Of a stretch of 64,000 nt of DNA, positions 10,867 to 42,447 are shown piece after piece. The stretch lies in IMG/VR virus record IMGVR_UViG_3300048609_000068, positions 1-64,000 of that record. The stretch is one strand, 5' to 3'. Each line of letters opens with the position of its first letter. The first letter of the stretch is position 1. The notes under the pieces were generated by a model, which did not search any database, had not been told where the DNA came from, and saw nothing but the letters and a program-made list of their open reading frames with translations. The position numbers and the translations under genes were made by a program. The stretch is from a virus (taxonomy: Duplodnaviria; Caudoviricetes).

Positions 10867-10933
10867 TCAACAATACTTAAAATATAAGATTATTTTGGCG
10901 ATAGCATCAACCGGGAGAGAGGAGAATTCTTTT

Positions 10934-11545
10934 ATGTATAAGATTCAAAATGTCACAGGAAGCAATATTTCTCTGACGTTGGAGCGTGGGGCTATCACTC
11001 TTCGACCGGGGCAATATTTTGATCTTGAACCTCATTGTTCGCGTGCATGGATGGCAAAAAATAGAGACTTGAATGTCTTTCTCAAGTCAAAGAAAATACG
11101 GCTTACTCATGACAGTCAGGCGCCGATTTCGAAGGTGACCGTCAAGGCATTTGTAAATCCTGCCCCAAAGCGACCCGTTGTTGAAGTAAGACCCATTGGA
11201 AAAGTTACGCCTGTTGCTCCAAAAGTGATCGATGTTCCTTCGCCGATGCCGATGCCAGTGACGCCAGTTCCTGTGAAGCCAAACGAGACCATCACATTGG
11301 TTTTGGAACCAAGTAGCCCTTCTCCGGAAGAACCTGTGGATCTTCCGACCGTAGACGAATACGGCAACAACCTGGCAAATACAAAATGGCGGCAGACTGC
11401 AACACCGACACTCCCCGAGGTTGTAAGCTACGATCCCGTGGAGGAACATCTGAAGAAGATTGCGGAAAGCTCCGCAAAAGAGGACGATGAAGAGGAAGAC
11501 GAAGACGAGAAAGCCGACAACGACGAAGATGATGAGGACTACTAA
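10934..11545 (+). CDS. Hypothetical protein: small N-terminal beta domain, Pro/Val-rich linker, acidic tail
   Basis: GAGGAG RBS. Ends EDDEEEDEDEKADNDEDDEDY. Confidence 0.7.
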   Translation: MYKIQNVTGSNISLTLERGAITLRPGQYFDLEPHCSRAWMAKNRDLNVFLKSKKIRLTHDSQAPISKVTVKAFVNPAPKRPVVEVRPIGKVTPVAPKVIDVPSPMPMPVTPVPVKPNETITLVLEPSSPSPEEPVDLPTVDEYGNNLANTKWRQTATPTLPEVVSYDPVEEHLKKIAESSAKEDDEEEDEDEKADNDEDDEDY

Positions 11546-11561
11546 CAATTGCAGGTGACCC

Positions 11562-13955: not shown

Positions 13956-14148
13956 ACAAAAGCCTGTCAAGCGAGGGCGCGTGGAGCTCTTTACCCGCCC
14001 TCCTTGTGGTTTTGCTCCGATTGTGTTCTTTGAAGATGGAAAATGCCCGTTCACGCGACATGACTCGTGTGGGAATTGCATCAAAAATGAGTGTGATTAC
14101 TACGACCTGATGTTTCTGGCTGAAGCAACAAAGTTGGGATATGCTTGA
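13891..14148 (+). CDS. Small Cys-rich hypothetical protein
   Basis: C...CPF..HDSCGNC..NEC. Stop overlaps the portal start (TTGA); start uncertain. Confidence 0.45.
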   Translation: MTLKELKKSQQRRAPSTRRALKQKPVKRGRVELFTRPPCGFAPIVFFEDGKCPFTRHDSCGNCIKNECDYYDLMFLAEATKLGYA

Positions 14149-15995: not shown

Positions 15996-16474
15996 TGCGT
16001 CCCATCAACGAAATCTATATTCATTGTTCTGCTTCGGAGTGGGGATGTGCGGTTGTTGTGGACTTGTGGCATCGGCAACTGGGTTGGAAGCAGATTGGCT
16101 ATCATTATGTTATCTTGAATGGTTTTCCGCATTCCAAGTTGAACTTTATTAAAATATTGGACGGTGTTATCGAACCAGGGACAGATAGCGCCCTCCCAGG
16201 GGTGCATGTCGCGGGACATAATCAAGATTCGATTGGGATTTGCTTGATCGGGGACAAGGCATTCACGGATCTGCAGCTTATTTCTGCCAAGGGGCTGGTG
16301 AGTGACCTTCGTAAAACATGGGGTGTGGACATCGCTAATGTCAAGGGGCATTACGAAGTACCCAATGTAAAGAAGACCTGCCCCAACATCCCGATGGATT
16401 TTTTCAGGAAATTCTTGGACGACAAGATTTCTGTCCAGGACCTCCAGAAACAGATTGCAATCTTCAAACCGTAG
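15995..16474 (+). CDS. N-acetylmuramoyl-L-alanine amidase (T7-lysozyme/Amidase_2 type endolysin)
   Basis: IYIHCSA, WH...GW..IGYHYVI, GVHVAGHN.DSIGICLIG, GHYE...KTCP zinc ligands. Confidence 0.9.
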   Translation: MRPINEIYIHCSASEWGCAVVVDLWHRQLGWKQIGYHYVILNGFPHSKLNFIKILDGVIEPGTDSALPGVHVAGHNQDSIGICLIGDKAFTDLQLISAKGLVSDLRKTWGVDIANVKGHYEVPNVKKTCPNIPMDFFRKFLDDKISVQDLQKQIAIFKP

Positions 16475-21423: not shown

Positions 21424-22554
21424 ATGAATTTGAACCCCTATCTCAAAAGTGCCAACAAGAAGTATGTTGACCGGAAAACGGGGGAGCCCTTTAACCCGTT
21501 CGCTACCGGGCGGAAGTTGAAGAGTGGCGGGATCGAGACGTCTGCAAGCCAGCGCATGTTCAATAGCGATGGCGTCCTGAACGCGGATAGCAAAGAGGAC
21601 GCGCTCGGGAAGATCCAGACGATCCTCGATGGGATGGCTACCGGGTCCTACGACATCGAGCGTGTGGCCTCCTACGAGAACTCGTACAGCCCGGATGAGA
21701 AGGAAGCCCTCCTCCGCGAAGCGTTTGCCGACCCGGGTTCGGAGGGCTTCCGCCAGGTCGGACAGAACCTCCTGAACCCCGTCAAGGAAGTCCTCGACTA
21801 CGAGGGGCTCTCACGGAAGTTCTTGATGCAGCGCACCATCAAACAGGGCGAGACCTTCCGCGTTGACAAGGATGTCTACGTGGTGGGCTGGACCATCGCC
21901 GAGGATGGACAGACACCGCAGAGCGTGGTGCCGGGCGCCTACTTCTTCCCTCCCGAGTTCGAGGTTACTGCTTACCCGAGTATAGAGCTGAAGGACAAGT
22001 ACCGGGCGCAGTATGACATCTTGGGCCGCGCTCAGGACCGCGCCCGGATGGCTATCGAGTACCAAGAGGACCTCGCGTTTGTGAACCTTGCCCAGGTCTC
22101 CTCGGGGCAGGTGAACACGGCGACCGCGTTTGCGACCTTGAACCTGGCAGCGCTGGAGTCGATGCGCTACCAGATCGAGCGGCACCGTCTCCTCTGTCAG
22201 CTCTTCCTGATCCACAGGCAGGAAGTGTCGGACCTCGTGAACACCGTCTCGACGCAGGTGGATCCCGTGACCCAGCGTGAAGCTATCATGGCTGGGTTCA
22301 TCGCGAGCATCCTCAATGCGTACATCGTGACCACGGCGGGCACGAACACGTTCGAGATCCTGCAGCCGGGTGAAGCGTATGCGCTGACGGACCCCGAGCA
22401 TCTCGGCGTGATGGGGACCCGTGTGGAGCTCTTCAGCGAGCCGGTCAATGAGTACATGTTAGGGAACCCTCGGCAGGGCTGGTTCTGGTATGAGTTGATC
22501 AGCCAGAGCATTCACAACCCGGCTGGCGTTGCCTACGGCCAGAAAACCTCCTAA
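21424..22554 (+). CDS. Major capsid protein (HK97-type fold)
   Basis: NPVKEVLDYEGLSRKFL, PPEFEVTAYPSI, DILGRAQD...YQED, GWFWYE...NPAGVA. GC3-rich codons and a strong RBS. Confidence 0.85.
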   Translation: MNLNPYLKSANKKYVDRKTGEPFNPFATGRKLKSGGIETSASQRMFNSDGVLNADSKEDALGKIQTILDGMATGSYDIERVASYENSYSPDEKEALLREAFADPGSEGFRQVGQNLLNPVKEVLDYEGLSRKFLMQRTIKQGETFRVDKDVYVVGWTIAEDGQTPQSVVPGAYFFPPEFEVTAYPSIELKDKYRAQYDILGRAQDRARMAIEYQEDLAFVNLAQVSSGQVNTATAFATLNLAALESMRYQIERHRLLCQLFLIHRQEVSDLVNTVSTQVDPVTQREAIMAGFIASILNAYIVTTAGTNTFEILQPGEAYALTDPEHLGVMGTRVELFSEPVNEYMLGNPRQGWFWYELISQSIHNPAGVAYGQKTS

Positions 22555-27148: not shown

Positions 27149-27201
27149 GATATTACAAGGAGGAAGATTTCCTCTATGTAACTGTTTTGAAAGGAGATAC
27201 G

Positions 27202-28593
27202 ATGCTTTGTGAAACTTGTGGCAGGGAACTGACGGATCAACAAATCAGGTGGGCAATCCGAAATAAGAGTAAGCACTTTTATTGTTCAACGACTTGTTGG
27301 GGAAAACGCCAAAGAAAGCATAACTACGATGACAAATTTTTGGACACTGATTCTGACTTATCGGCTTATTTTACAGGATGGTTCGTTGCTGACGGACATT
27401 TTTCTAGGTCCGACAAATGCATCCATATGACTTGTGTAGACAAGCAGCTTGTTGACGATTTTTGTAAAATGATTGATTACGAGAATGTTATTCATGAACG
27501 TTACAAACCTATTACTGAAAAAACAAAAAAATTATCTGTTGAGTACAGCTTTCTATTGGGTGGAAATGTACGAAAACGAATTGAAGAAATGGGGTACTCT
27601 CCTGGAGTAAAGACCGGGAAAGAGTTTTTTCCATCCAGATTTTATAATAAAGAATGGTTCTTTCCATTTTTGCGAGGTTTTATTGATGGTGACGGTACAA
27701 TCCGTGTGGGTCAAAGAGGGGATTTGTTGCTGTCAGTTGTTAATGCGTCATTTGAGTTATTAGCAGATATACATTTATATCTACTGGATAACGAAGTTGT
27801 CAAAGGAGGAAGTTTAAGTAAAGTAAAAATTACTAAAAAGAATAAGAGAAAGACTACTATTTATAGCCTAGGTTTTGGGCATAAGGATTCTATTAGTATT
27901 TGCGACCGTATGTATGAAGACCCTACGATTATGCTGGAGAGAAAGTGCGGTATGTATTTAGCTGGAAAAGAGTTTATCCTTTCTGTTGTTCCTTATGAAG
28001 AGTATACTCCTTGTCAAGCGTTCGGATGCGAAAAAGAAGCTAAGATTCGTGGCTATTGTAAACAGCATTATGATGAAAAATACCGTCGGTGGTATAACGC
28101 TAGTCATAGGAACGAACTAAATGAAAAAAATAAGAAATGGCAATTAATTAATCGTGACTTCTATTTAGCTCGTAGACGCCGTTGGTATCTAAAAAATGCT
28201 GAAAAAGAAAGACAACGTTCAAAAGCATGGAAAGATGCCAATCCTGAAAAAGTGAAGTTAATGAAAGATAATTATCGGGAGAATAACCGTGACAAAGTAA
28301 ACGAATACAAGCGTTCGTATAGAGAGGAGCATAGCGAAAAAATTAGAGAGCAGGAAAAGGCTTCTTATCTGCGAAATAAACAACAAAAGAACCGGCACAG
28401 TCGAGAATACTACCAAAAAAACCGTGAGAAGGTGTTGGCTCAAGCCAAGGAGTACCGAGACCGCCCAGAAGTAAAAGAACGCAAAGTGCAATACTGTAAG
28501 GACTACGAAAATAAGAACAAGGAAAAGCAGCAGGAATACCGCCGCCAATATTACTACCGCAAAAAAGCCGAACGCGAATCTCTCCAAGACTAA
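27202..28593 (+). mobile_element. Free-standing double-motif LAGLIDADG homing endonuclease with zinc fingers and a long charged helical tail
   Basis: AYFTGWFVADGHF and PFLRGFIDGDGTI. N-terminal CETC..CSTTC, second finger C..FGC...GYCKQHY, and C-terminal Y.E.N.EK repeats. AT-richer than its neighbours. Confidence 0.8.
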
Positions 28594-28680: not shown

Positions 28681-29070
28681 ATGGAGCAAGATGGGTTTGT
28701 CGCGCTTGTCGATGGGATCCGTCAAATTTTTTCAGACTACAGGAGCGCCTGGTATCTGGGGTGTACGACCCTGTGTTATTTATTTATTCAGGTCCTCCGT
28801 GGCAAAGCTGGATTCAGTATCCCCTGGCTCACCAAAAAAATAGAGTCGATGCCGAAAGAATTCAAGACCTATGCAATCGTTGGCATCTTCGGTCTGACCG
28901 GTTTTCTCGGGACCTTTGCCGGTTCCCCCGTCAGTGTGGGAGCGCTGCTGGATGGATTTTTGAAGGGACTCGCGGTTGGGATAGGGACAATTGGCACGCG
29001 GAATGTGTTGAAACAAGGGATTGAGGGAGTGAAGTCTTTGAAAGAACCTAAAGTGGAGGAACCTAAATAA
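28681..29070 (+). CDS. Small multi-pass membrane protein (holin-like)
   Basis: Three hydrophobic segments and a charged C-terminus in 129 aa. Confidence 0.45.
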   Translation: MEQDGFVALVDGIRQIFSDYRSAWYLGCTTLCYLFIQVLRGKAGFSIPWLTKKIESMPKEFKTYAIVGIFGLTGFLGTFAGSPVSVGALLDGFLKGLAVGIGTIGTRNVLKQGIEGVKSLKEPKVEEPK

Positions 29071-29417
29071 TGTCTACGATGTACTTCGAGTGGGGTAACT
29101 TGATGGGGGGCATGACCCCCAGTGGCGCTCCGGTGATTCCTGCGGCTGCTCCTTATGGACCACCTGAAGAATTCTCAGGGACGCTGGGTGCGGGTGTGAC
29201 GACGATCACATTCACGCAGAGAACCAAGCGTGTCACCATCCGAAATACCCATGACACACAGATTCTGAACTACTCTCTTGACGGAGGCGCGACATGGTTC
29301 GTCTCTGGTCCGTATCAAGTGGTTCAGGAATGGGTCAATATCACTAATCTTCAACTGCGACCTGCTGTTGCAGGTGAGACCCCAACGTATGAAATAACGG
29401 CAGTTCTTGTTGCGTAA
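29070..29417 (+). CDS. Small beta protein, possible spike base / decoration protein
   Basis: TITFTQRTKRVTIRNTHDTQILNYSLDGG; TAATG coupling. Confidence 0.5.
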   Translation: MSTMYFEWGNLMGGMTPSGAPVIPAAAPYGPPEEFSGTLGAGVTTITFTQRTKRVTIRNTHDTQILNYSLDGGATWFVSGPYQVVQEWVNITNLQLRPAVAGETPTYEITAVLVA

Positions 29418-29430: not shown

Positions 29431-31005
29431 ATGAGAAAGCTATTTTGGACACTTGTAGCCCTTTGCGTTTGTAGCGTTGCTTACGGGCAAGCCACGCAGC
29501 AAGTTTATTCGCGAATCCGGGATGCAACCAACACGGTTGCAGTGTCTGCTGTTGGACAGCTCACGCTCACGATGCCAGTCACGACGTATGCACTGGCTGT
29601 AGCTTCTGGAGTTTATTATTATGACGGAGTCAATCTCAGGCGTTGGTCTGGATCGACCCTGGGATCGGATAATGTTGTCGCTACCACGTATGCACCTTAC
29701 TCCATGGCGTTTGGTTATTCTTATGATGGGGCTGCGTGGGATCGGATCACGTCAACAACGGCAGCGGATAATTTATCGTCTACGCAGCAGGGGCTGAACA
29801 CCCTGAGTTATAATTTATTTTACAATGGAACGAATTACCAGCGTTGGACAGGTGTTGCAACACATGCCGATGCTGTTCCAAAGACGACGCCTTCTCCGTG
29901 GGTAGGGAACTTCAACTACGTCCTTCATGGCGTAACGTGGGATATGCAGACGGCTTCGACATCGGCGGACAACCTGTCTGCAACGCCACAGGGGATTGAC
30001 AGTATTAGTTATACGCATTTCTTCTCATCGGATGGAGTTCCAGCGTTCAGAAGATGGACGGGATTGGTGACGCAGGTTGATGCCCTCACGAATGCGACGG
30101 CTGCACCTTTCGTTGCGAACTTGTCTTACGTCTTGCATGGAAGCACATGGGACAGGATGACCGCCATTACGTCTGCGGATAACATCTCCGCGACGCCACA
30201 GGGACTTGAAGTGATTGATTACATGCATTACTTCAACGGGACGAATCATCAAAGATGGACTGGAGAGACATGGGATTCTGGTTTGGCGATTACGAATGCG
30301 CCACCTGTGATTGCTCTTTCTTCATTTTATAATGGATCCAACGGGCAGTATCTTCAAGGATCGAAACTCGATGGTGAAACTGTAGCCAACTCCACTTACG
30401 CTCCGCATGGAAAGAACTTCTTATATGGATATGACGCTACGGCAGCTACTTGGCGCTGGATAAACGCGGCAGATTCTCAGGCTGATGGTAAGGCTACAAC
30501 ATTAAATGCACTGGATACTACCTCGTTTCTCTATGCATATAATGCTGGCTCTGCTGCATTTAATATGCTTAGGTTGGGTGCATACAATGAATTGTACGTT
30601 ACAGATGTTGCTGTGAGGCCAGGGGAGGATCCGGCCAATGATTTTGTCAAGGTAAAAATCGATGCGGTTGGGACTACTGCGCCCGACGCTACTGTAGGGA
30701 CTGCCGTTACTGGTGGCGCCGGTCTTACGATTGTTCTTGCCAGCCGTGATGTTTCTCAAGATATCAATTGGTGCATTTACCTTAAGAACACAGACGGGGT
30801 TGATCCGTTTACTAATGCGGAAGTAGAAACTTCACCGGATAATGCGGTTTTTTCGAGCTTGGGTTGGTTTAGCTGTGATACATTGGCTGCTGGCGCTGTG
30901 TGCAATTTTTGCACTTCAGGATCGGCCTATAAATATGTTCGTGCAAGAGTTGCCAGTGCAAACGATGTTACGGTAACCTCTTATTTCTTTGGTAATCGTA
31001 ATTAG
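29431..31005 (+). CDS. Fibre-like protein with Sec signal peptide, internal repeats and C-terminal beta domain
   Basis: MRKLFWTLVALCVCSVAYG|Q. About 10 [YF]x[YF][DN]G..W.R sub-repeats. The C-terminal domain is paralogous to 31554..32144. Confidence 0.7.
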   Translation: MRKLFWTLVALCVCSVAYGQATQQVYSRIRDATNTVAVSAVGQLTLTMPVTTYALAVASGVYYYDGVNLRRWSGSTLGSDNVVATTYAPYSMAFGYSYDGAAWDRITSTTAADNLSSTQQGLNTLSYNLFYNGTNYQRWTGVATHADAVPKTTPSPWVGNFNYVLHGVTWDMQTASTSADNLSATPQGIDSISYTHFFSSDGVPAFRRWTGLVTQVDALTNATAAPFVANLSYVLHGSTWDRMTAITSADNISATPQGLEVIDYMHYFNGTNHQRWTGETWDSGLAITNAPPVIALSSFYNGSNGQYLQGSKLDGETVANSTYAPHGKNFLYGYDATAATWRWINAADSQADGKATTLNALDTTSFLYAYNAGSAAFNMLRLGAYNELYVTDVAVRPGEDPANDFVKVKIDAVGTTAPDATVGTAVTGGAGLTIVLASRDVSQDINWCIYLKNTDGVDPFTNAEVETSPDNAVFSSLGWFSCDTLAAGAVCNFCTSGSAYKYVRARVASANDVTVTSYFFGNRN

Positions 31006-31125
31006 CTAAATATTTTCAAGTTACGATGTATCATCGAAAGCAATACAAAAAATTTGAAACTGATTCACAAAAATAATTGTATATAGGATTAGACCAGTAG
31101 ATGATCAAAAATAGAGAGGTGACAA

Positions 31126-31542
31126 ATGCCTTTTCCTGTGGATAACTTTTCTTATATTAACTCCATCTGGCTCCCGCGTGTCCGTTACCTCCAAAGTGTT
31201 CGGACAGACTTTTCAGACGCCGGTGCTGTGACGCTTGCGACTGTGACGGGATCGGTTGAAATCGAACGCATTATTATCAAGTCAACCGCAGTGACGACGG
31301 TCAATCTGACGAGTGTTGCTTGCACGGGTGGATCGGCAGATGTGGTGACATTCATCGATGCGATTAGCGGTGCCAGAGCAAATATAGCAGCAGCAGATCA
31401 ACAGGTGGTGTGGCAAGGAAGCGTTGAGCTTGGAAATGCTGCATTGATCCGTTTGACATTTGTCGGTGGTGGGCACACGGCGGTTGCATTGTTGGCAACG
31501 ATCCGCTACCGCGCAATTACTTCTGGCGCTGGTTTGGCGTAA
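31126..31542 (+). CDS. Small beta-sandwich structural protein (paralogue of 34889..35311)
   Basis: Shares LATV...IE.IIVK.T.VTT..L.SVA...GA..N...AD.QV.W.GS.ELG.A...GLA with 34889. Confidence 0.7.
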   Translation: MPFPVDNFSYINSIWLPRVRYLQSVRTDFSDAGAVTLATVTGSVEIERIIIKSTAVTTVNLTSVACTGGSADVVTFIDAISGARANIAAADQQVVWQGSVELGNAALIRLTFVGGGHTAVALLATIRYRAITSGAGLA

Positions 31543-31553
31543 GGAGATAAATT

Positions 31554-32144
31554 ATGGGTTCACAGCAAGATGGACGGACGCTAGTCAATATTTCCATTGA
31601 CGACTTGGTGTCTCTTGCGCTGGTCGCTATCAAAGGAGTTGATGGCGTAGCGTCAGGGACTGGGTTGGCCCGTATCGGTGGCACGGACGGCACCTTAGAT
31701 CAAATTCTGAGCATGGATTCTTCTGGTCATCCTGTCACGAACAGAAACTGGACGATTGCAGGGGAGGATATCGTCAACAGTTGGACCACCACGCGGATTG
31801 GCGCCCATGTGGTGTTGACTGGAACTGCTGCGGTGGCGGTCAACGGGGCAGCGGTAGAAGTGATGCCGTCCGTGGACGTGAGTTATTACGAAGAAGTCAG
31901 CATCAATATTTACAATATTGGGAATCCTTTAACAAACTGCATCGTATCTGGATCGAACGACAACACCCGTTGGGTGTCTTTGATTCCGATCTATGGAGTG
32001 CTGGAGACCGCGTGCATTACATTAGCAAGTGGTCTTGCTGGGTGTGCGTGGTTGAGCACTGGATTTCCGTTCAAATATGTCAAGCTTCAATGTTCTTCTG
32101 GTGCTGCAACGTCGGTGACTTATTATTTTTACGCCAGGACGTGA
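31554..32144 (+). CDS. Structural protein with C-terminal domain paralogous to that of 29431..31005
   Basis: DVS.....I...N....TN..V..S.DN....SL...C.TLA.G...C....FKYV pattern shared. Confidence 0.65.
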   Translation: MGSQQDGRTLVNISIDDLVSLALVAIKGVDGVASGTGLARIGGTDGTLDQILSMDSSGHPVTNRNWTIAGEDIVNSWTTTRIGAHVVLTGTAAVAVNGAAVEVMPSVDVSYYEEVSINIYNIGNPLTNCIVSGSNDNTRWVSLIPIYGVLETACITLASGLAGCAWLSTGFPFKYVKLQCSSGAATSVTYYFYART

Positions 32145-32153
32145 GAGGAAGCC

Positions 32154-34808
32154 ATGGCATTAGAAAATGTGCTTCATGCGCCTTTGATTGGAGTGCGGAC
32201 TTCTTTTGTAGGTCTATGGACCGTCTGTGAATATTCCAATATTACAAATGCTGCGGGCGACCTTATTGACACAAGTGGTTCTTTCACTTGGCCCAATGGA
32301 ACAGTGAAGGCTCAGCATAATCTAACGGCAGCAGGAGCACCAGGGCAGGTAAACACTTCCATTATGAAGAACGACGGGAACCTGGCACAAGCAAGGTCGT
32401 TTAACGGGTCTACACAAATATATGATAAGGCGTATCATTCTAACTTTGCTATACTAGCTGGCAATGTTACAGCAACAGTGGTTTTTTCTCACGCACATTC
32501 CGATGCTACTATTAGGCCAGTTTGGGGTAATAACTCTGGAAACACCGGTTTATACGGAAGAGTAAATACTGGAGGATATTCTGTAGTTGTTGGTGTTGGA
32601 ACTGGTCAGGTAGCAGTAGGTTGGACATCTGGAACTACAGGTGATTCAAAATATCACGTAGGTCAGTTTGTCAAGATTGGTAATGTAGGATATGTTATAG
32701 TTGATGGTGTAAAATCTGTTGGAGTAAACCTTACAGGAGCTACAAGTAGCGCAGTTGGTTTTGCTCTTGGTGCACTTAGACAAGGTTCTTCTAATACCTT
32801 TGCTGGCAATGTTCCTTACTTCCGTCTCGACGCAGAAGCACTCTCTGATGAGGTGTTAGAATTCCAATGGATGTGCCTTTTAGGTGCTGCTACCTATAGT
32901 CCTTCTTATGCACCAGTTTTATATACTCGCGCGGCTAATTCAAATGCATTATCATCTTACAAACAAATCTTAGGTAAGTTATATCAAGTCGCGGCAAATA
33001 ATCCAAGAGTAGGTACTGATAGTCTGTTGATAGAAGAGACAAGAACTAACTATTGGACGTATTCGCAGGCATATACAGGTTGGGGTTTGGCAAATCTAAC
33101 GATGCCGAGTGTGAATAATCCAAGCCCAGACCCAAATTCAAATACTGCTGCAATATTACACGAATCTGGTGCTGGAGACGTAGCTCACCAATTCGCCCCA
33201 GGTAGTTCACTACCATGGATTGCTAATGAAAAGAATACAGGTTCATTATATATAAAATCTATCAACCGTAGTTGGGTATATATCAGAATCTATTCCGCAA
33301 CCCTGGGTTTCAGTTATACTTGGTTCAACATAACAATCGGAAAAGTTGGAACAAAAGCGGCAAGTCATGCTGCAAGAATAACACCATTGGCAGATGGTTG
33401 GTTCCGAATTGAGGTAACTCTATCTACTGGTGTAAATGAAAATGTTGGGTTTTCTTTCTTTGTAGCCTCGGCGGATAATACACTAACATTTGATGCAGGA
33501 GCAGGGCAAGATTCTATCTATGTTTGGCAACCACAACACGAAGTAGGAGCACACGCAACAAGTCCAATCCTTACAACAACAGCCGTCGCAAGTCGTTCTG
33601 CCGATGACTACACACTTAGGCCCTGGGAACTAAACACTGCTCTTCTGTTAGGTTCTGAAACTTGGTATACAACTTTTGAACAAGACGTGGCAAGTTTAGG
33701 TACTGTATCATTAGGTGGCAAAACTTTTACTCAAGCGGGCGACGTAAAACACGTTAGAATGCCTGACTTGAAACACTATTACGACTTTGACGGAACAGGG
33801 GATTATCTAAGTATAGCAGACAATTCTTTCAACCCTGCGGGAAGTTTTAGTGTAGTTATGGCTATTACTCCTTCTGTTTTGACTGCAGCAACTACTTACT
33901 ATACTGCTTCCAAACTCGGTGCTGTTGGTAACCGAGGATGGTCGTTATGGGCATATGGGACATCTGTTTATATTGATATTTCAAAGGATGGAACTACTCA
34001 GAATAACATATCCAAAGCATCTGCATTGACTGTTGGTAAAACAAGTCTTATAACTGCTACCTATACATATAGTGGACATCCTGATTTGACAGATAGCAGG
34101 TTGGATATTTATGTTGATGATTTAGTGGTTGCTTCTAAGACAGATTGTGTTGGCCCAGTATTTTCGTCAACTGCATCTTTTCAGATAGCAACTGTCGGTG
34201 GCTCAAATTCCCTAAACGGCAAACTCCACTTCCTCTCCTTCCACAACGGAACTGTGTTGACCCAAGCACAGCACAACGAACTCTATGCCAGGATGAAGAC
34301 TGGAGGTATATTACCACTCACAATATCTTCCGCGAGTTATTATAAAAAACTGTTGATAGAATTTGAGGCTAAGGCGTTATATTCAAGTTCTGCTGATATA
34401 GGAATGACAAGATCTCTTTTGTCTATTGCAGGAATGACAGGTATTGTTGATGGTGAACACTCTGCGGAAATAGATAGAAATGTTATCCATGTCCTAATAA
34501 ATAGTCAGGGAAAGACATATGTATTCACTTATGATAAGGATACAACAAGTAGATATCTTGCCTCTGCCGCAAATTATGTATCTTGGTCTTCTTGGCATAA
34601 GTATCAGGTATATCTTGATACTGCTAATTTGGCCAACTCGTATCTGAAAATAGATGGTGTCAATATTACAACTGAAACGTCGGCAAACTGGACGGGTGCT
34701 ACAACATTCTATTTAGAGAATACTAAAATTCGGCTTGGACAGAATTACGCAGGAGTAGTAAGTAGTAATGCTAATCTTAGAAACATAAGGATCGCCTGTG
34801 ATACATAA
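32154..34808 (+). CDS. Head-spike/fibre-like protein with LamG (concanavalin A-like) domains, paralogue 1, no signal peptide
   Basis: LLIEETRTNY motif, YDFDGTGDYL LamG core, homology to 35822 and 39763. Confidence 0.75.
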   Translation: MALENVLHAPLIGVRTSFVGLWTVCEYSNITNAAGDLIDTSGSFTWPNGTVKAQHNLTAAGAPGQVNTSIMKNDGNLAQARSFNGSTQIYDKAYHSNFAILAGNVTATVVFSHAHSDATIRPVWGNNSGNTGLYGRVNTGGYSVVVGVGTGQVAVGWTSGTTGDSKYHVGQFVKIGNVGYVIVDGVKSVGVNLTGATSSAVGFALGALRQGSSNTFAGNVPYFRLDAEALSDEVLEFQWMCLLGAATYSPSYAPVLYTRAANSNALSSYKQILGKLYQVAANNPRVGTDSLLIEETRTNYWTYSQAYTGWGLANLTMPSVNNPSPDPNSNTAAILHESGAGDVAHQFAPGSSLPWIANEKNTGSLYIKSINRSWVYIRIYSATLGFSYTWFNITIGKVGTKAASHAARITPLADGWFRIEVTLSTGVNENVGFSFFVASADNTLTFDAGAGQDSIYVWQPQHEVGAHATSPILTTTAVASRSADDYTLRPWELNTALLLGSETWYTTFEQDVASLGTVSLGGKTFTQAGDVKHVRMPDLKHYYDFDGTGDYLSIADNSFNPAGSFSVVMAITPSVLTAATTYYTASKLGAVGNRGWSLWAYGTSVYIDISKDGTTQNNISKASALTVGKTSLITATYTYSGHPDLTDSRLDIYVDDLVVASKTDCVGPVFSSTASFQIATVGGSNSLNGKLHFLSFHNGTVLTQAQHNELYARMKTGGILPLTISSASYYKKLLIEFEAKALYSSSADIGMTRSLLSIAGMTGIVDGEHSAEIDRNVIHVLINSQGKTYVFTYDKDTTSRYLASAANYVSWSSWHKYQVYLDTANLANSYLKIDGVNITTETSANWTGATTFYLENTKIRLGQNYAGVVSSNANLRNIRIACDT

Positions 34809-34888
34809 AGGTTTGCTCAGAACGCAGCAGGAACCGTTACCTTAGACGGGAACTTAGCGAACGAATTTGTCACGAATAGGAGAATGTC

Positions 34889-35311
34889 ATGTCGATTCAA
34901 ATAAACGGAATTGAAAAATCTGAGTCGAACCAGCTCACCCGCGCTCGTTTTCTTCAGGTTCCAGTCACCGCCGCTGCCAATGCTGCCAATGTTCTGCTGG
35001 CAACTGTCGGTGCAGGAACGGTTGTCCGCATTGAAGGTGTGATTGTTAAAACCACCGGCGTTACGACGATGGACCTTTCGAGTGTGGCTATCCGTGCAGG
35101 CGCGGCAAAGGTTTTTGTGTTTATTGACAATACCGTGGGTGCAAAAGTCAACCTTGACGTTGCAGACGAGCAAGTAGCATGGATTGGATCTGCAGAACTT
35201 GGCGCTGCATCCACAATTTATATGGACTTGACTGGAGGTGACGCCACACCTGTAGCAATGCTCGTAACGATATTTTATAGAGTGGTATCAGGCGTGAACG
35301 GTTTGGCGTAA
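34889..35311 (+). CDS. Small beta-sandwich structural protein (paralogue of 31126..31542)
   Basis: Recognisable end-to-end similarity to 31126; AGGAG RBS. Confidence 0.7.
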   Translation: MSIQINGIEKSESNQLTRARFLQVPVTAAANAANVLLATVGAGTVVRIEGVIVKTTGVTTMDLSSVAIRAGAAKVFVFIDNTVGAKVNLDVADEQVAWIGSAELGAASTIYMDLTGGDATPVAMLVTIFYRVVSGVNGLA

Positions 35312-35330
35312 TCCCTGGAGGAGAGCTACC

Positions 35331-35750
35331 ATGGACTATTTATGTGGCCGGAACGTTGTCGAGAAGAACCTCAGTTCTGCTACCTACGTTGCCCCTGACT
35401 TGTTAGACGGTATTGCGATTGCCGCTGTGGATGATGTGAGCGCATGGAGTCTGGGGGCTCCTGCTACCATTACAGGAGTTCCAGCGGCTGGTTCCGGTGC
35501 GTATAACATTTGCGGAATTTTCATCTACGCTATCAATATGATTGGTGATTACCAAATAAAGATCTATGATGATGCCGTATTCGTTGCGTCCAAGGTATTC
35601 TACAAGAAATCTGTGACATCGGACGACTACACGGAGTTGATTGTAACAACACCAATCATTGCATCGGGTAGCGTGATCACGGCATGTTTGGCTGCGTCGG
35701 ATAACAATGGATGCACTGCCAAGATCAAAGTTTATTATCGATATCTATAA
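35331..35750 (+). CDS. Small beta-rich hypothetical protein
   Basis: GGAGGAG RBS; fits operon spacing. Confidence 0.65.
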   Translation: MDYLCGRNVVEKNLSSATYVAPDLLDGIAIAAVDDVSAWSLGAPATITGVPAAGSGAYNICGIFIYAINMIGDYQIKIYDDAVFVASKVFYKKSVTSDDYTELIVTTPIIASGSVITACLAASDNNGCTAKIKVYYRYL

Positions 35751-35821
35751 GGGATCCGCATGGCAAAATACTATATTTTGTGTTGCGCTTTGCCGATGCC
35801 TATCGTACACGAGGGTATGGT

Positions 35822-38800
35822 ATGTCGAAAATATTTTTCCTTCTGACATTGCTGTTTAGTTTATTTTTGAACGCTGCAGAAAATAGCGTCATCAAAGCTC
35901 CGTTCTCGGGGTCTGATTATAAACATCTGACTAAAAATTCTAGTATCTTGGAGATCTGGGGAGACGTTGACGCTTCGGGGAGTTTGATCGATCATTCTGG
36001 AGAGAACCTGTTTGCCTATTCAGAAGACTTTACGCAGGCAGGAACGTGGGCCACATCGAATGCAACGTTGACTGGGAATGCTTACCAGAATCCCTTCAAT
36101 GGATTGTTGACGGCTGATGCACTGAATGAAGGGGCTGCTGCAGCAACGACACACTATATTTCCCAAAGTGTGTCCGTGACGAGCGGTAGGATCTACACGC
36201 TGAGTTTATATGTAACGTCCATCCAGCAGACGGATCCAGCGAAGACGCGAGGGTGGATTGCACTGGGTCCAAACGCTGGGGCGTCCATGGCTTATTTCAA
36301 CCTGGACACATGCACGGTTGGAACGACGTCTACCGTGATCAGCACTTCCGCGAAAGCTGTTTATCCTGATTGGTGTAAGGTCGCAGTCCGGTTTGCAGCT
36401 ACGTCCACAGCATCCGTAGCGCAGCGGATCTACGTTGCGGAGACTGATAATGACGTTACGTTCGATGGCGGAACACAAGTTGCTTATGGGATCTTCGGCG
36501 CTCAATTTGTGGACAACACGGACAATGTGATTGCGGACATGGGGAGATACGTTGCTACGGGTGCCGCGTCAAAACCTCGGTTGGACCTTTCGCCGACGAA
36601 CGCTCCTACGTTGCATACGTCCAGGTTGCAAACATCGGATAATCGGTTTTGGCAAGGACGGACGTTCAATGGAACGACGCAATACTATTCAAAACTACAT
36701 CACGATGCGATGAATATATTCGATGGAGATTTTACTATAACGGTAGTGCTCAAACAGCCAACAACGGCAGCAGCTACAGATCATGTTTTTTCACATGGTT
36801 CTGCAGGTGTAAATGGATGCACTCTTTACAATGCAGTAACATATTCTGCTTTGCAACTTGATAATAGTGGCTTATCTCCGGCGTCAAGAACTGCAGCAGT
36901 ATCAGCAACTTGGAACGATGACAAATACCACGTTCTTCAGGGGGTAAGAAGAGGTAATATTTCTTTTGTTTCTGCAGATGGAAATAGAAGTTCTGGTAAG
37001 GATGTTACAAATTATGGAGTAGATGGATCAAACATAGTCTACCTAAGCGGCTCGTCTCCTCTTGAAGGTTCCATTCTTTATTTTCGGTTAGATGCTTCTG
37101 CGCTTACGGATACAGAATTAGAAACAGACCGACAGCTTTTGATGGGCTATGGGATGGGGCAGCCCAAACAGACAAATGTAGGGTTCTCCAGAGCATCAGC
37201 TGGCTATGTGACGCTGTTCGACAACACGCTGGCACAGCGCATGGCGGGTCTTCCTCGGGTTGGTCGGGATGGACTGCTCATTGAAGGGACGGCGACTAAC
37301 TTACAAAGATATAGCCAAGCGTTCAATAGTTGGGCAGTTCTTTCTGATCTGACTGTTCCTACTACAAATGCAGCAAGTCCTGATCCTAACTCAAATACTG
37401 CTTGTGTTCTACACGAAAGCGGTGTTGGTAGCATCGCACATTTTATTCAAGATACTAATAGTAGTGGACTAACTGCTGGTGCAGTACATACATACTCAGT
37501 TAGACTCAAACCAATAAATAGAAATTGGGTACTGTTGCGTGCGAAAGACCCAGCTTCTCCTACTCGCACTTGCTATTTTAATATTTCAACTGGAAAAGTT
37601 GGAACTGCATTAAATTGTACTGGACGTATAGAACCGAAAGCAGATGGGTACTATAAGTGTTCAATTACGTTTACTCAAACAGTAGGGCAAACCACTTCTG
37701 AACAGTTTATTTATATTGCAGAAGCAGACGGTGATATTACATTTGATGCTGGTGCTGGCCAAGACAGTCTCTATGTCTGGGGATCTCAATTAGAGTTAGG
37801 TTCCCATCCAACGACTTATATTCCCACGACCACTGGAAGCGCCACTCGCTTGGCGGATAATCTTACGATGCGTCCTTGGAAGTTGACTCCGAATGTAAGA
37901 ACCGGAACAGAGACGTGGTGGACGACCTTTGATCAAGACGTGGCGTCCACAGGAACCGTGGTGCTTGGAGGAAAGACCTTTACACAAGCGGGGGATACGA
38001 AACACGTTCAGACTTCGGACTTGTCGAATTATTACGACTTTGATGGGACAGGGGATTACCTTAGTATAGCAGATAATACCTTTGATCAGACAGGATCTTT
38101 TAGTTTAGTATTTGCAGTTACACCTAGTAACCTTACTGGGAATCATTATATATGTTCCAAAGGAACTACGCCAGGAGAAAAAAGATGGTATATATATTTA
38201 TCTTCAGACTCTGTAATTTTATCGCTTTCATCCGATGGAACAACAGTCGTTTCTTTGACTAAAGCAACGGCTTGTTCCATTGGTAAAACTTCAATAGTTA
38301 CTACAGCCTATGATAATATTACTCATACAGGTAGTATCTGGGTTGATGACTTGGCTGTTGCAAGCCGAAGTGATTTTACGGGAGTAATAGCAGATCCTGC
38401 TAAAAATTTCTCCATAGGTTCAGGGGATGGTGGCGGAAGTCCATTTGCAGGTAAGTTTCATTTCTTGGGAATCCATACAGGTACTGCCCTAACTCAAACT
38501 CAACACGATACTGCCTTCAACAACATGAAAGAATCCGCGATTACCCCTCTCGTCCTTTCTAATATAGCTCCAGCGACCTATACGTCCATCGAATTCGACG
38601 CCAAGTGTGAGTGGAACTCCAGCACCGACATTGGCGTTGCGAGAACCTTCTTGGAGCTCTCTGGAAACACCGGTCTTGCTGGTTCAGCTAAACTTGCAGC
38701 GACCAACAGGAACAGACTCATCTTATCTACAAACGCCAGCGCCACGCTCACGACATCTTTAGCTGACAGCACGGCGACTGCACATTCGATTGGATCAGCG

Positions 38801-39049
38801 ATTTCCAATTCGACAACTTATGGTTCTTGGCATCATTATAAGATCTACTGGTCATGCGCGGATCTCTCTGGAACGTATCTTGAAGTGGACGGTCTCACGA
38901 CGGGTTACACGACAGCAACGGCCATGACTGGAACCTGCACGCTAAACAACCACAACACGACGCTCCGTCTTGGATCGATCTTTGATGACACCTTATTAAA
39001 TTCTCCTGACTGCTCTTTCAAAAATTTCAGAATAAGGTATGGGCAATAA
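35822..39049 (+). CDS. Head-spike/fibre-like LamG protein, paralogue 2, with Sec signal peptide and an extra carbohydrate-binding-like domain
   Basis: GAGGG RBS then MSKIFFLLTLLFSLFLNA|AE. Motifs GLLIEGTATNL and YDFDGTGDYL. Confidence 0.75.
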   Translation: MSKIFFLLTLLFSLFLNAAENSVIKAPFSGSDYKHLTKNSSILEIWGDVDASGSLIDHSGENLFAYSEDFTQAGTWATSNATLTGNAYQNPFNGLLTADALNEGAAAATTHYISQSVSVTSGRIYTLSLYVTSIQQTDPAKTRGWIALGPNAGASMAYFNLDTCTVGTTSTVISTSAKAVYPDWCKVAVRFAATSTASVAQRIYVAETDNDVTFDGGTQVAYGIFGAQFVDNTDNVIADMGRYVATGAASKPRLDLSPTNAPTLHTSRLQTSDNRFWQGRTFNGTTQYYSKLHHDAMNIFDGDFTITVVLKQPTTAAATDHVFSHGSAGVNGCTLYNAVTYSALQLDNSGLSPASRTAAVSATWNDDKYHVLQGVRRGNISFVSADGNRSSGKDVTNYGVDGSNIVYLSGSSPLEGSILYFRLDASALTDTELETDRQLLMGYGMGQPKQTNVGFSRASAGYVTLFDNTLAQRMAGLPRVGRDGLLIEGTATNLQRYSQAFNSWAVLSDLTVPTTNAASPDPNSNTACVLHESGVGSIAHFIQDTNSSGLTAGAVHTYSVRLKPINRNWVLLRAKDPASPTRTCYFNISTGKVGTALNCTGRIEPKADGYYKCSITFTQTVGQTTSEQFIYIAEADGDITFDAGAGQDSLYVWGSQLELGSHPTTYIPTTTGSATRLADNLTMRPWKLTPNVRTGTETWWTTFDQDVASTGTVVLGGKTFTQAGDTKHVQTSDLSNYYDFDGTGDYLSIADNTFDQTGSFSLVFAVTPSNLTGNHYICSKGTTPGEKRWYIYLSSDSVILSLSSDGTTVVSLTKATACSIGKTSIVTTAYDNITHTGSIWVDDLAVASRSDFTGVIADPAKNFSIGSGDGGGSPFAGKFHFLGIHTGTALTQTQHDTAFNNMKESAITPLVLSNIAPATYTSIEFDAKCEWNSSTDIGVARTFLELSGNTGLAGSAKLAATNRNRLILSTNASATLTTSLADSTATAHSIGSAISNSTTYGSWHHYKIYWSCADLSGTYLEVDGLTTGYTTATAMTGTCTLNNHNTTLRLGSIFDDTLLNSPDCSFKNFRIRYGQ

Positions 39050-39766
39050 ATGGATAGAACTAAACTGATCCTGATTGGAGCCCTCGTCCTCGGCGGGGGC
39101 GTTGGAGTTTATGAGCTATTGGGTGGAGAAGAGAAGATCCCGATCTATGAGTATCAAGTTGTCCCGAAAGCATACCTCCACGCTACCAAGGGAAAGTATG
39201 TCCGCATTGTTTCAAATACGCAAGACATAAGCAAGGCGCCGATGAACACGGATGTTGGCAGGGTCACGCTCTTGACTGGAAGTGTCCCTGCTGACGCGCT
39301 CTGCGAGGTTGTCTTCGCGGCTCCTTCCATCAAAGACAAGAACACGAACATGGATATGACGGACGTGCCTGAGCTTGCTCCTTATTGGCAGAAGGCTGGG
39401 ATGTCCAATCCGCAAATGGTGGCTCCTGGCAAAGTGGATTTGAATCCGATCTGGTGGACGGTCCTGCAAGGGGAGGGTTGTATTCGTGCGGTTGACTACA
39501 TTGGTTATTTTGGTTCTTCCATCAAGGAGTTCTTATCCCTTGGTGAAGAGACTAAAGGGAGATTCCTGAAGACGTACAATGCGAATAAGGAGATTGTTCC
39601 CTATGGGGATAAAGATGCGGATCCGACTGCCGAAGTATTTGCTCCATTCGGTGTGTTTGGAAGAGAGAGGGATCTTGATTTTGAGACGGTGAAGGAAGGG
39701 AACGTGATTCCTAAGTATCAGATTCCTGAAGGTGGGTTTGCAGAATTGGAAGAGGTGGAGCCGTGA
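39050..39766 (+). CDS. N-terminally membrane-anchored hypothetical protein
   Basis: MDRTKLILIGALVLGGGVGVYELLGG signal anchor followed by a soluble domain. Confidence 0.65.
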   Translation: MDRTKLILIGALVLGGGVGVYELLGGEEKIPIYEYQVVPKAYLHATKGKYVRIVSNTQDISKAPMNTDVGRVTLLTGSVPADALCEVVFAAPSIKDKNTNMDMTDVPELAPYWQKAGMSNPQMVAPGKVDLNPIWWTVLQGEGCIRAVDYIGYFGSSIKEFLSLGEETKGRFLKTYNANKEIVPYGDKDADPTAEVFAPFGVFGRERDLDFETVKEGNVIPKYQIPEGGFAELEEVEP

Positions 39767-42447
39767 ATAAACTTTTGTTTATCTTTAGTTTTCTGTTTTC
39801 TTTGTTTGTTCAGGCTGCTGGACATAAGGTTTACGATGCGACTTTTGGTGGATCTCGAATTAGTGGGTATATACATAACTGGACAATAGCTGAGTATTCA
39901 GGAGAAATAGACCCGAGTACGGGATACTTGATCGACAAGAGTGGTGTTCGCACGCTTCCAAATGGTCAACCGAAACCACAGCATGATCTTGCCCCAACAG
40001 GTGCGCCAACTACGGCGATTTCTACATTGAGAAAACAGGATGGGAATTATTGGAGAGGAAGAAGTTTTGACGGCGCTACGCAGTATTACTCAAGGACACA
40101 TCATGTAAATTTTAATATTTTTGATGGGGATTTTACTATAACTGTTGTATTTTTATCGCCTACTACCGCTGCTGGTACTGATTCAATTATTCAACATTCA
40201 TCTGTTCTTCATGATGGAGCAACATTATACGTCGGACAGTCAGGTGACTTCGCATTAGAAATTGATAATGATAGTTTAGTCCCAGTATATAAAACTATTT
40301 CCACTCCTGCTATATATCACGATGGAAAATATCACGTCGGACAAGTAGTGAGGAAAAGTAATAAATGTTTTGTTAGCGTAGATGGAACCAGAACTGCTTC
40401 TGTTGATGTTACTGGATATGGTAAAGACGGAACGAGAGTTGTATACTTAGGCGGTCTTGGAACCTATACTGGCAACATTGCCTACTTCCGCCTCGACGCC
40501 GAAGCCCTTCCTGATGAAGTCTTAGAATTTGAGCGTCAAGCCCTGATGGGGTATGCATCTTCCACGTCGATGAAAGTTCCTCCTGCATTCGTTCGAGCTT
40601 CTGCTGGTTACACGAATGTTCAAGGGAATCTCCATTCCAGAATGAACAACGCTCCCAGGATTCAAACAGATGGTTCTATCCTGATCGAAGAAGGAAGAAC
40701 CAACTATATGACGTATTCAAATGCGCTCAACCAGTGGACAAAACTAAACGCTGGTGATTCTTTCTCGACCACGAACACGACTCCGGAAACAACCGCAGAC
40801 GGTTATGGCATCATTGGTGCTGCTGCAAATGTGGACCATGGAATCACCCGAGCAACGGCTGCGCTCACTGCTGTTAACCATACGCTTTCTTTTTATGCAA
40901 AACAAGGAACGCATCCTTGGGTTTATTTTGCGGATACAACAGTTGCAACTGCGACTGGATATTTCGATCTGAGCCGTGGAAAATTTGGTACATTAGGCGC
41001 GGGATGGGTTATCACCCCGACTTTTGACACCAATGCAAATGGATGGTACAGGATCAAGGCCCCATTCCTTGGAACGGTAGCAACGCACACGATCCAGTTG
41101 AGTCCAGCAGATGCAGATCTGGACAAGACAACCACGGGTGACGGCGCGAGCACCATGACTGCAATGTGGAACGTCCAGGTTGAAGCTGGATCGCATGCGA
41201 CATCTCCGATCACAACGGCCGCTGTGACAGCAGCGAGAGCTGCTGATGACTATACAGCAATTCCTTGGGAGCTGAACGTCAATGCAATTCGGACAGGGAC
41301 GGAGACTTGGTGGACAGATTTCTCATCGGACGTTGCAACTACAGGTACGGTTTCTTTAGGCGGAAAGACATTTACACAAGTTGGAGACACGAAGCATGTC
41401 TATGGTCCAGATTTGGGGCATAGGTATGACTTTGATGGAACTGGGGATTATCTAACAATAGCAGACAATTCTTTCAATCCTGCGGGAAGTTTTAGTGTGG
41501 CGTTGGTGCTTACTCCTTCTGTTTTGACTGCTGTAACTACTTATATGATGGCAGTCAAAGCAGGAAATGTTGGAGATGTCGGATGGTATATATATGCGTA
41601 TGGAGATGGTATCTATTTTGAATTTTCAAAGACAGGAACTGGAACGAACTACACTTCAAAAGCCACGTCTCTTACGGTTGGAAAAACAAGTCTTATAACT
41701 TTTACATATACCTACAGCGGTCATCCTGACTTATCAGATAGTAGATTGGATATCTACGTTGACGGTTTAGTAGTTGCTTCAAAAACGGATTGTTATGGTC
41801 CAGTATATGCTTCAAGTGCTGCATTTTCTATTGGGGCGAAAGCAACAGGACTAAATGCTTATAACGGCAAACTCCACTTCTTATCTTTCCACAATGGAAC
41901 AGTGTTGACCCAAGCACAGCACAATACCGCCTACGCGAATTTCAAAAAAGGTGGGATTCTTCCGTTGACTATTAGCAGCACGAGCGCAAGGAAAAAGCTG
42001 TATGTGGAATTTGAGGCTAGGGCGGAATGGAGTGGCTCTACTAATATAGGTGTAACGAGAAGTCTGTTAGAAATAGGTGGCCTTACTGGAGTATCCGCTG
42101 CGACACGAAATAGATTATTGTTATATTTTAGTACTGCTACAAGTAAGTTTTATGCAACAGTTTATTCCAATGGAACAATTGAACATTCACTTGTGAGTAA
42201 TGCTGCAGACCCAATAGATTTTTCCAAGTGGCATAGGTATCAATACTATTTTGATGCTACGAATTTGGCCAACTCGTATCTGAAAGTAGATGGTTCAACA
42301 ACTGGATTTACTGCTACCGTCGGTACTATGACTGGCGCAACGACATTATACTTACAAGATACTAAAATTCGTCTTGGCCAAGGTTACGCCAGTAACATTA
42401 ATGGCAATTCTGAAATCAAAAACGTAAGAATCCTCACATACGAATAA
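39763..42447 (+). CDS. Head-spike/fibre-like LamG protein, paralogue 3, with Sec signal peptide
   Basis: GTG start overlapping the previous TGA. MNKLLFIFSFLFSLFVQA|AG, ILIEEGRTNY, YDFDGTGDYL. Confidence 0.75.
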   Translation: MNKLLFIFSFLFSLFVQAAGHKVYDATFGGSRISGYIHNWTIAEYSGEIDPSTGYLIDKSGVRTLPNGQPKPQHDLAPTGAPTTAISTLRKQDGNYWRGRSFDGATQYYSRTHHVNFNIFDGDFTITVVFLSPTTAAGTDSIIQHSSVLHDGATLYVGQSGDFALEIDNDSLVPVYKTISTPAIYHDGKYHVGQVVRKSNKCFVSVDGTRTASVDVTGYGKDGTRVVYLGGLGTYTGNIAYFRLDAEALPDEVLEFERQALMGYASSTSMKVPPAFVRASAGYTNVQGNLHSRMNNAPRIQTDGSILIEEGRTNYMTYSNALNQWTKLNAGDSFSTTNTTPETTADGYGIIGAAANVDHGITRATAALTAVNHTLSFYAKQGTHPWVYFADTTVATATGYFDLSRGKFGTLGAGWVITPTFDTNANGWYRIKAPFLGTVATHTIQLSPADADLDKTTTGDGASTMTAMWNVQVEAGSHATSPITTAAVTAARAADDYTAIPWELNVNAIRTGTETWWTDFSSDVATTGTVSLGGKTFTQVGDTKHVYGPDLGHRYDFDGTGDYLTIADNSFNPAGSFSVALVLTPSVLTAVTTYMMAVKAGNVGDVGWYIYAYGDGIYFEFSKTGTGTNYTSKATSLTVGKTSLITFTYTYSGHPDLSDSRLDIYVDGLVVASKTDCYGPVYASSAAFSIGAKATGLNAYNGKLHFLSFHNGTVLTQAQHNTAYANFKKGGILPLTISSTSARKKLYVEFEARAEWSGSTNIGVTRSLLEIGGLTGVSAATRNRLLLYFSTATSKFYATVYSNGTIEHSLVSNAADPIDFSKWHRYQYYFDATNLANSYLKVDGSTTGFTATVGTMTGATTLYLQDTKIRLGQGYASNINGNSEIKNVRILTYE

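Follow-up and report, generated by a model that had tools for sequence, protein, structure and literature searches.

Tailed-phage particles are taken to be built entirely in the cytoplasm. Why, then, would a tailed phage encode large fibre-like proteins that begin with signal peptides for export through the Sec pathway? The question is raised by a block of genes at positions 29431-42447 of the IMG/VR virus record IMGVR_UViG_3300048609_000068 (Caudoviricetes). We analysed the first 64 kb of this 75.4-kb record (hereafter, the window), the completeness of which is 41% according to CheckV. Genes are named here by their start positions. We propose that the block is a conserved cassette of genes for accessory proteins that bind sugars, and that the majority of these proteins are genuine Sec substrates. 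Judged from their sequences, the proteins gp29431, gp35822 and gp39763 are very probably exported and cleaved. They would most likely mature in the host periplasm, whereas phage particles are built in the cytoplasm.

An earlier note on this DNA had described several large genes of the block as opening with signal peptides and gene 39050 as having a signal anchor. All four N-terminal hydrophobic segments (29431, 35822, 39050 and 39763) were confirmed in the sequence, with corrections to two of the starts. Gene 29431 (29431-31005, + strand) encodes a predicted exported protein of 524 amino acids (aa). It starts with an ATG located 14 nt past the preceding stop and served by the ribosome-binding site (RBS) AAGGGA; the signal spans residues 1-19 (29431-29487), with cleavage predicted between AYG and Q. 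The second fibre is encoded by gene 35822 (35822-39049, + strand; 1075 aa), with the signal in residues 1-18 (35822-35875) and the predicted cleavage between LNA and A. We placed its start at ATG 35822 and not at the first ATG of the open reading frame (ORF), 35711, because the former has the RBS GAGGG and homologues begin at the same position. ATG 35711 has no RBS, and a start there would bury the hydrophobic segment. The third fibre, encoded by gene 39763 (39763-42447, + strand; 894 aa), starts with a GTG that overlaps the stop codon of gene 39050 (GTGA) and lies downstream of GAGGTGGAG; its signal covers residues 1-18 (39763-39816), with cleavage predicted between VQA and A. In all three proteins Lys or Arg is found among the first three residues, small residues occupy positions -3 and -1, and the whole signal is 18-19 residues long, so short that its hydrophobic core would not serve as a stable membrane anchor.

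To see how common such N-termini are, all 69 non-nested plus-strand ORFs of at least 60 aa in the window were scanned with a crude heuristic based on hydropathy, charge and the -3/-1 residues. Within 14-64 kb, export-like N-termini were detected in 29431, 39050 and 39763, and the only other flag, 54820, has a doubtful GTG as its first start. The scan had read the ORF of gene 35822 from 35711, and this gene was judged from its own start. The simplest alternative is that wrong start codons or chance hydrophobic stretches merely imitate signals. It might draw on the heuristic nature of the N-terminus scoring and on the second-fibre ORF, which runs 37 codons upstream of the signal. However, the chosen starts have good RBSs and agree with the starts of homologues. 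Moreover, the signals are kept in proteins that come from many samples and are 27-50% identical, and the firm cases within 14-64 kb cluster in one block. An artefact of this kind is close to refuted.

We then asked whether the signal is a trait of the fibre family as a whole. The fibre profile search collected 47,750 proteins among 1.84 billion representatives, most of them through the central domain. A conserved N-terminal motif is present in 68 of the best 150 of these 47,750 matches. About 48 of the 68 motif-bearing representatives have a signal ending directly before the motif, in about 14 the motif begins with the protein's own Met, and about five look like truncated gene calls; a survey of this sort had been suggested in the earlier note. 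In 45 signal-bearing representatives, the net charge of the n-region is at least +1 without exception (45/45), a -3/-1 site is present in 41, and the uncharged run has a median length of 16 residues. The closest metagenomic homologues of the fibres (27-44% identity) mostly have signal peptides of unrelated sequence.

The paralogous fibre gp32154 (32154-34808, + strand; 884 aa) has no signal. An upstream in-frame start is impossible for this gene, and when 11 family members are aligned, its Met coincides exactly with the cleavage site predicted for the paralogues, consistent with the earlier observation that its N-terminus aligns with their mature N-termini. We mapped the signal state onto a FastTree phylogeny built excluding the signal region. 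Parsimony gives at least nine changes of state, and at least six are forced by supported branches. None of 500 shuffles was as low as nine changes (shuffle mean 13.4), which shows only that the signal state is clustered on the tree. Since gp32154 nests among signal-bearing relatives, loss of the signal is the simpler reading in its case. Mosaic recombination weakens any fibre tree, and the window fibres are themselves domain-wise mosaics: the third LamG domain is 67-83% identical between gp39763 and gp32154, while other domains pair differently. With at least six switches on the tree and with signal-less forms starting at the mature N-terminus, the idea of the signal as a modular addition or loss holds up well.

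The second line of evidence comes from gp29431, which is unrelated to the fibres. It consists of the signal, variable W-x-G repeats and, at the C-terminus, a DUF6385-like jelly roll. The AlphaFold2 (AF2) model is confident only for residues 419-524, whereas the W-x-G repeats are poorly modelled. The assignment to DUF6385 (PF19912) goes through relatives: these reach 26.3 and 27.2, the cut-off being 26.8, the C-terminal 134 residues of the window protein are themselves unmatched, and gp29431 is clearly homologous to the relatives touching DUF6385. Among gp29431 homologues every intact N-terminus (12 of 14) is signal-bearing, mostly with Ala before and Gln after the predicted cleavage site, and the remaining two look truncated. 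The Gln at +1 (Q20) is nearly invariant in the aligned homologues. So are C482 and C491, and C448 and C494 are invariant; the Cys residues within the signal of gp29431 do not belong to a lipobox. Using a set widened by a second search, seeded from a signal-less relative, we found the four-Cys pattern in 24 of 31 signal-bearing family members and in none of five clearly signal-less ones (Fisher p 0.002). As far as sequences can tell, the strongest independent evidence that the compartment has really changed comes from the gp29431 family.

The Gln at +1 deserves a separate remark. It resembles the 'Bacteroidetes Q rule', according to which Gln follows the signal at +1 (Bochtler et al. 2018, PMC5837995), despite the strong Shine-Dalgarno use of this genome. 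A Bacteroidota host, at which this residue hints, was considered and is unlikely because the genome uses strong Shine-Dalgarno sites: a Shine-Dalgarno-like motif is located upstream of 41 of 55 window genes.

The same cassette is present in at least nine other uncultured phage contigs (labelled L005, L006, L011, L014, L015 and L018-L021). Its members are a DUF6385-type protein, often a beta-helix protein, an anchor protein and one or two LamG fibres, each of them bearing a signal or an anchor. The relatives' cassettes add signal-bearing beta-helix (pectate-lyase-like) proteins, and also a trypsin-like protease. Other contigs differ in the signal state. The fibres of L012 and L013 are signal-less, and so is the DUF6385 protein in L013; in L008 the fibre and two small neighbours are signal-less, and the start of the DUF6385-type gene is off the contig. 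Mixed cassettes, combining signal-bearing and signal-less members, are found in the window and in L010. As a side observation, the beta-helix proteins of five contigs (L005:7990-9258, L014:628-1884, L015:2899-4149, L006:7678-9278 and L019:13758-15026) share a stretch G-A/V-S-(T)-Q/E-N-G right after the hydrophobic segment, which could be a processing or sorting motif. The window has none of these beta-helix proteins.

The anchor protein of the window is encoded by gene 39050 (39050-39766, + strand; 238 aa), translationally coupled to fibre gene 39763. Its N-terminal membrane anchor is evident from the sequence, and its predicted periplasmic part contains two invariant Cys residues. Homologues directly precede signal-bearing fibres in L005, L006, L011, L019 and L020. 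The anchor gene was seen directly before signal-bearing fibres only, although the sample is small and the counts ignore relatedness. An ESM Atlas search with the anchor protein gave no usable match.

What kind of proteins are the fibres? The three are paralogues (gp32154 and gp35822 are 49% and 43% identical to gp39763, respectively), and gp35822 has an additional N-terminal sugar-binding-like insert. Their central domain is spanned by PHROGs 5939 and 1419, both 'tail protein' (residues 268-494 in gp32154; E-value 1e-34 for PHROG 5939 in gp35822). The LamG architecture recognized in the earlier note is borne out by a Laminin_G_3 match in gp39763 above the Pfam cut-off (E-value 1.3e-16) and by fold comparison. 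The AF2 model of gp39763 (mean predicted local distance difference test score, pLDDT, 68.6) has a lone helix in residues 2-19, a disordered linker and then beta domains only. The best Foldseek matches of this model are neurexin 1-alpha LNS1-6 strings (E-value 7e-16) and laminin LG4-5. Foldseek found no trimeric fibre matching the model, which has neither a coiled-coil nor a beta-helical shaft. These proteins thus do not look like canonical trimeric tail fibres: the shaft is absent from the model, and their genes precede the sheath-like gene and baseplate J. Based on the model, we propose that the fibres may be monomeric strings of LamG lectin domains arranged around a domain resembling gene transfer agent (GTA) head-spike fibres.

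The last part of this description stems from a profile comparison. The central domain is homologous to Rcc01080, the head-spike fibre of RcGTA (E-value 4.3e-42; positions 413-640 of the fibre profile A1 aligned with residues 43-274 of 6tb9_F3), although the single sequence of gp39763, used without the family profile, fails to reach 6tb9. The GTA likeness mentioned in the earlier note is therefore a true homology, confined to the central domain. In RcGTA, a single monomeric flexible fibre, Rcc01080 (GhsB), stands on a pentamer of the jelly-roll base protein Rcc01079, into which its residues 2-10, a hydrophobic Ile/Leu-Gly repeat, plug on the finished capsid (PDB 6TB9; Bardy et al. 2020, PMC7296036). 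The two systems are alike in the homologous central domain, in that a string of lectin domains modelled without a trimeric shaft parallels the monomeric Rcc01080, in that the element for docking would be at the N-terminus, and in small beta-rich proteins encoded nearby. They differ in that Rcc01080 is a signal-less protein of 325 aa, whereas the fibres here have 884-1075 aa and three or four added LamG-type domains. In addition, two of the three fibres start with what looks like a cleavable Sec signal, after which comes a conserved motif of another kind, and the Ile/Leu-Gly docking repeat is not present in their N-termini.

The homology with Rcc01080 nevertheless invites another explanation, in which the hydrophobic N-termini would be docking peptides inserted into a multimeric base on the capsid and assembly would be wholly cytoplasmic. 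The short hydrophobic N-terminus by which Rcc01080 docks, together with the small, potentially base-forming beta-rich proteins adjoining the fibres, makes this worth considering. However, docking does not need the basic n-region and the -3/-1 site that are so regularly observed, and the N-terminal sequences drift freely, as signal peptides do. The hydrophobic part has been lost at least six times while the downstream motif was retained. Furthermore, unrelated partners (the gp29431 family, beta-helix proteins and the protease) have the same kind of N-terminus, cysteines covary with it, and searches of PDB sequences gave no match to Rcc01079 for the small neighbours 29070, 31126 and 31554. We consider docking peptides improbable.

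If the proteins are indeed exported, their attachment to virions is close to an even call, tilting slightly towards the negative. The course of events that we favour, in which the proteins mature in the periplasm and dock onto finished particles at lysis, is a reasonable possibility somewhat short of even. In this sequence of events, gp29431, gp35822 and gp39763 would be expressed late and threaded through the inner membrane, and signal peptidase I would cut directly before the conserved N-terminal motif. Folding would take place in the periplasm, with disulfides formed in gp29431 and in the membrane-anchored gp39050, which may serve as a tether or chaperone. The mature fibres would then share their N-terminus with signal-less relatives, including gp32154, which would remain cytoplasmic. 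Holin action and lysis would merge the two compartments, whereupon the periplasmic fibres could dock onto completed particles and act as reversible polysaccharide adhesins. The complete scheme, in which head-spike-like lectin fibres and their partners are Sec-exported, matured in the periplasm and joined to particles at lysis, with lineages having repeatedly switched the route, is offered tentatively, as its overall probability is below even.

Docking at lysis is favoured because the mature N-terminus is the same as in the cytoplasmic relatives, because the fibre body has a homologue in a fibre decorating finished capsids, and because the genes sit in the late structural operon without detectable separate signals. 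A scan of the cassette for promoters and terminators found nothing above shuffle expectation and thus no sign of a separate transcription unit. A further reason is that virion proteins of the cultured Cellulophaga phage phi18:3 annotated by tandem mass spectrometry (MS/MS) start with leader peptides. In the phi18:3 record (NC_021794), which we checked, these are gp085-gp087, annotated with 'experimental MS/MS proteomics'. As in the window, they are large late proteins with classic signal peptides, there recorded as virion or tail proteins. In contrast to the present phage, whose host uses strong Shine-Dalgarno sites, phi18:3 is a short-tailed phage of Bacteroidota, and its record does not deal with cleavage or with location in the particle. 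Neither gp39763 nor gp29431 had a tblastn match in the phage collection containing this record.

A number of observations weigh against docking of exported fibres at lysis. Before lysis, a periplasmic protein is unable to reach surface polysaccharide, and fibres released by lysis are diluted. The Cellulophaga virion MS/MS data could reflect co-purifying envelope material. The label 'head spike' is not established, as at the sequence level the central domain is shared with baseplate and tail-fibre proteins: profile A1 also matches 9b45 (a baseplate wedge protein), 8env (structural protein gp45) and 9occ (tail fibre gp17). The match to Rcc01080 is the homology of one domain and does not by itself place the fibres on the head. 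No homologue of the Rcc01079 base was found among 29070, 31126 and 31554 in a search limited to PDB sequences. The covariations of cysteines and gene order with the signal involve few, phylogenetically related cases, and the signal-less relatives of gp29431 make up one or two clades, which means few independent events. Cysteines matter here in yet another respect. The earlier note had seen Cys pairs in several domains as a possible reason for periplasmic folding, and this holds for the gp29431 family and for the 39050 anchor protein but not for the LamG fibres. The latter have no invariant Cys, and the density and parity of Cys are alike in signal-bearing and signal-less fibres (Mann-Whitney p 0.30). 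The disulfide rationale is thereby ruled out for the LamG fibres, and in the absence of a Cys difference there is no evident folding need for their export.

Exported proteins need not end up on particles at all. Some known phage proteins act at the envelope: Llp of T5 and Cor of phi80 and N15 are small exported superinfection-exclusion lipoproteins with a lipobox, encoded beside receptor-binding genes. The cassette resembles them in coding for envelope-targeted proteins beside host-recognition genes; it differs in having no lipobox and in the size of its proteins (524-1075 aa), which have multiple lectin domains. Following the logic of T5 Llp, the cassette could exclude superinfecting phages or keep progeny off debris, its lectins and enzymes binding or cutting nascent surface polysaccharide or receptors without ever joining the virion. 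The signal evidence is the same for this possibility as for docking at lysis, and the analysis did not discriminate between the three fates put forward in the earlier note: joining of virions at lysis, surface display on infected cells, and soluble decoys. In its favour are also the signal-bearing beta-helix proteins and the trypsin-like protease in the relatives' cassettes, as well as the membrane anchor protein 39050 and the probable small membrane protein 28681 in the block. Moreover, the signal-less baseplate fibres 57484 and 60563 could provide all virion receptor binding, and the 67-83% identity of the third LamG domain in gp32154 and gp39763 would fit mimicry of a virion copy by an exported one. 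On the other hand, the cassette takes up 13 kb within a structural operon that is late and tightly packed, with nothing to indicate separate transcription, and known exclusion factors are small. In L005 and L014 all copies are signal-bearing, so that a virion twin to be mimicked is missing. The free N-terminal motif is conserved, which suggests that it docks to a partner, and in L012 and L013, where whole cassettes are signal-less, an envelope role before lysis is impossible. A purely envelope-acting cassette is the main rival of docking at lysis and is somewhat less likely.

Two further comparisons concern export itself. XepA of PBSX (PDB 6I56) is titled as exported, came up among the top matches in the fold search with the gp29431 jelly roll and superposes on its C-terminal domain (Z 10.1, root-mean-square deviation 2.6 over 103 residues). 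However, the search returned generic jelly rolls, a very common fold; unrelated GOLD and protease C-terminal domains score equally, and there is no sequence similarity to XepA. Our literature search found no paper on Sec signals of tail-fibre-like or head-spike-like phage proteins. The only near work that we found in print deals with Porphyromonas gingivalis phages, whose signal-bearing proteins of unknown function were read as envelope modifiers (Matrishin et al. 2023, PMC10367356). Those phages share with the present one Sec signals on phage proteins, including Gln at +1 as in gp29431 and most of its aligned homologues. Their proteins, however, are not fibre-like, and the LamG fibres here have no Gln at +1.

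If the export signals of this widespread family of fibre-like, receptor-binding-type proteins work, there are two possible consequences. Some of the equipment for host recognition may mature in a different compartment and join the particle at lysis; alternatively, phages may regularly export copies of these proteins, which would then act on the envelope of the cell. Each outcome, if true, would change the annotation of 'tail fibres' in metagenomes and the reading of virion proteomes, and would mean that engineered fibres should be expressed periplasmically with their native N-terminus. As a natural control, the locus has one signal-less paralogue alongside two with signals, as well as a partner family in which cysteines track the signal.

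Between and around the large genes lie several small ones. Small protein A (31126-31542, + strand; 138 aa) and small protein A' (34889-35311, + strand; 140 aa) are signal-less paralogues with 43% identity, and no convincing alignment was obtained between small protein A and the C-terminal knobs of the relatives' beta-helix proteins. Small protein B (31554-32144, + strand; 196 aa), also signal-less, has no Pfam or PDB match, and its C-terminal strands resemble the gp29431 jelly roll by eye only; small protein B' (35331-35750, + strand; 139 aa) is signal-less as well. Gene 31126 is preceded by the only sizeable gap in the block, an AT-rich stretch of 120 nt (31006-31125) with a promoter-like TTGAAA followed, after about 18 nt, by TGTATATA. 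The gap may mark an inserted unit consisting of A, B and 32154.

At the head of the cassette is gene 29070 (29070-29417, + strand), which codes for a signal-less, beta-rich protein of 115 aa with no family match. Look-alikes were noticed by eye at the same position in L005 (119 aa), L019 and L020, and the protein may be a candidate cytoplasmic or virion-side partner. Directly upstream, in a conserved position, gene 28681 (28681-29070, + strand) encodes a probable small membrane protein of 129 aa with two to three hydrophobic helices and no Pfam or PHROG match. Look-alike N-termini were seen, by eye and unaligned, in L005 (133 aa) and in Virus Rctr197k (107 aa). In L005, L018/L019 and L020 the cassette is preceded by look-alikes of the 115-aa gene of the window and, except in L020, of its 289-aa gene. 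The earlier note had set the block between a neck adaptor and a head-closure gene. These labels could not be confirmed: searches of Pfam, PHROGs and PDB sequences with 28681, 29070, 42688 and 43603 found no head-tail connector family, the flanking genes are without a family match, and 28681 is membrane-protein-like.

In the window as a whole, nearly every gene is on the + strand. Genes for the portal (14145-15995) and for an HK97-type major head protein (21424-22554) can be identified, and the downstream tail module includes a DUF4815-like protein (44300), a tube initiator (49332) and baseplate J (56057), indicating a large phage with a baseplate. Two large fibres without a signal peptide follow baseplate J (57484-60552 and 60563-63133, + strand). 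Both have a DUF1565-like (beta-helix) N-terminus, and fibre 57484 also has Kelch and Laminin_G_3 domains; a 1550-aa protein with Kelch and Peptidase_M14 domains is similarly placed in L005. DNA and tblastn searches with the fibre and gp29431 against deposited phages gave no match, nor did scans of viral contigs with the single fibre sequence and of genome contigs with the gp29431-family profile (A2). Among deposited portals, the one from the metagenomic Virus Rctr197k is closest (36% identity, a portal-only relationship), followed by that of Bacillus phage G. Rctr197k (L007, KX853510.1) has, at 9125-12954, four successive ORFs (198, 690, 158 and 107 aa) with signal-like or membrane N-termini, located between the head genes and a 286-aa gene that matches the 289-aa gene of the window by eye.

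An Rfam search over 26-45 kb gave no match. Small ORFs with N-terminal hydrophobic segments also occur in the early region (3116-3436, 6876-7220 and 7217-7606, + strand) and are not related to the cassette. Directly 3' of the portal is an ORF of 159 aa (15995-16474, + strand), the N-terminus of which recalls, by eye only, T7-lysozyme-type amidases. A gene for a LAGLIDADG-type homing endonuclease (27187-28593, + strand; LAGLIDADG_3, E-value 3e-9; PHROG 4645) is located within the structural operon immediately upstream of the cassette. In relatives, nuclease genes are found inside the same cassette (L011, L015 and L020); they are HNH-like by eye or, in L015, of the Endonuclease_7 type.

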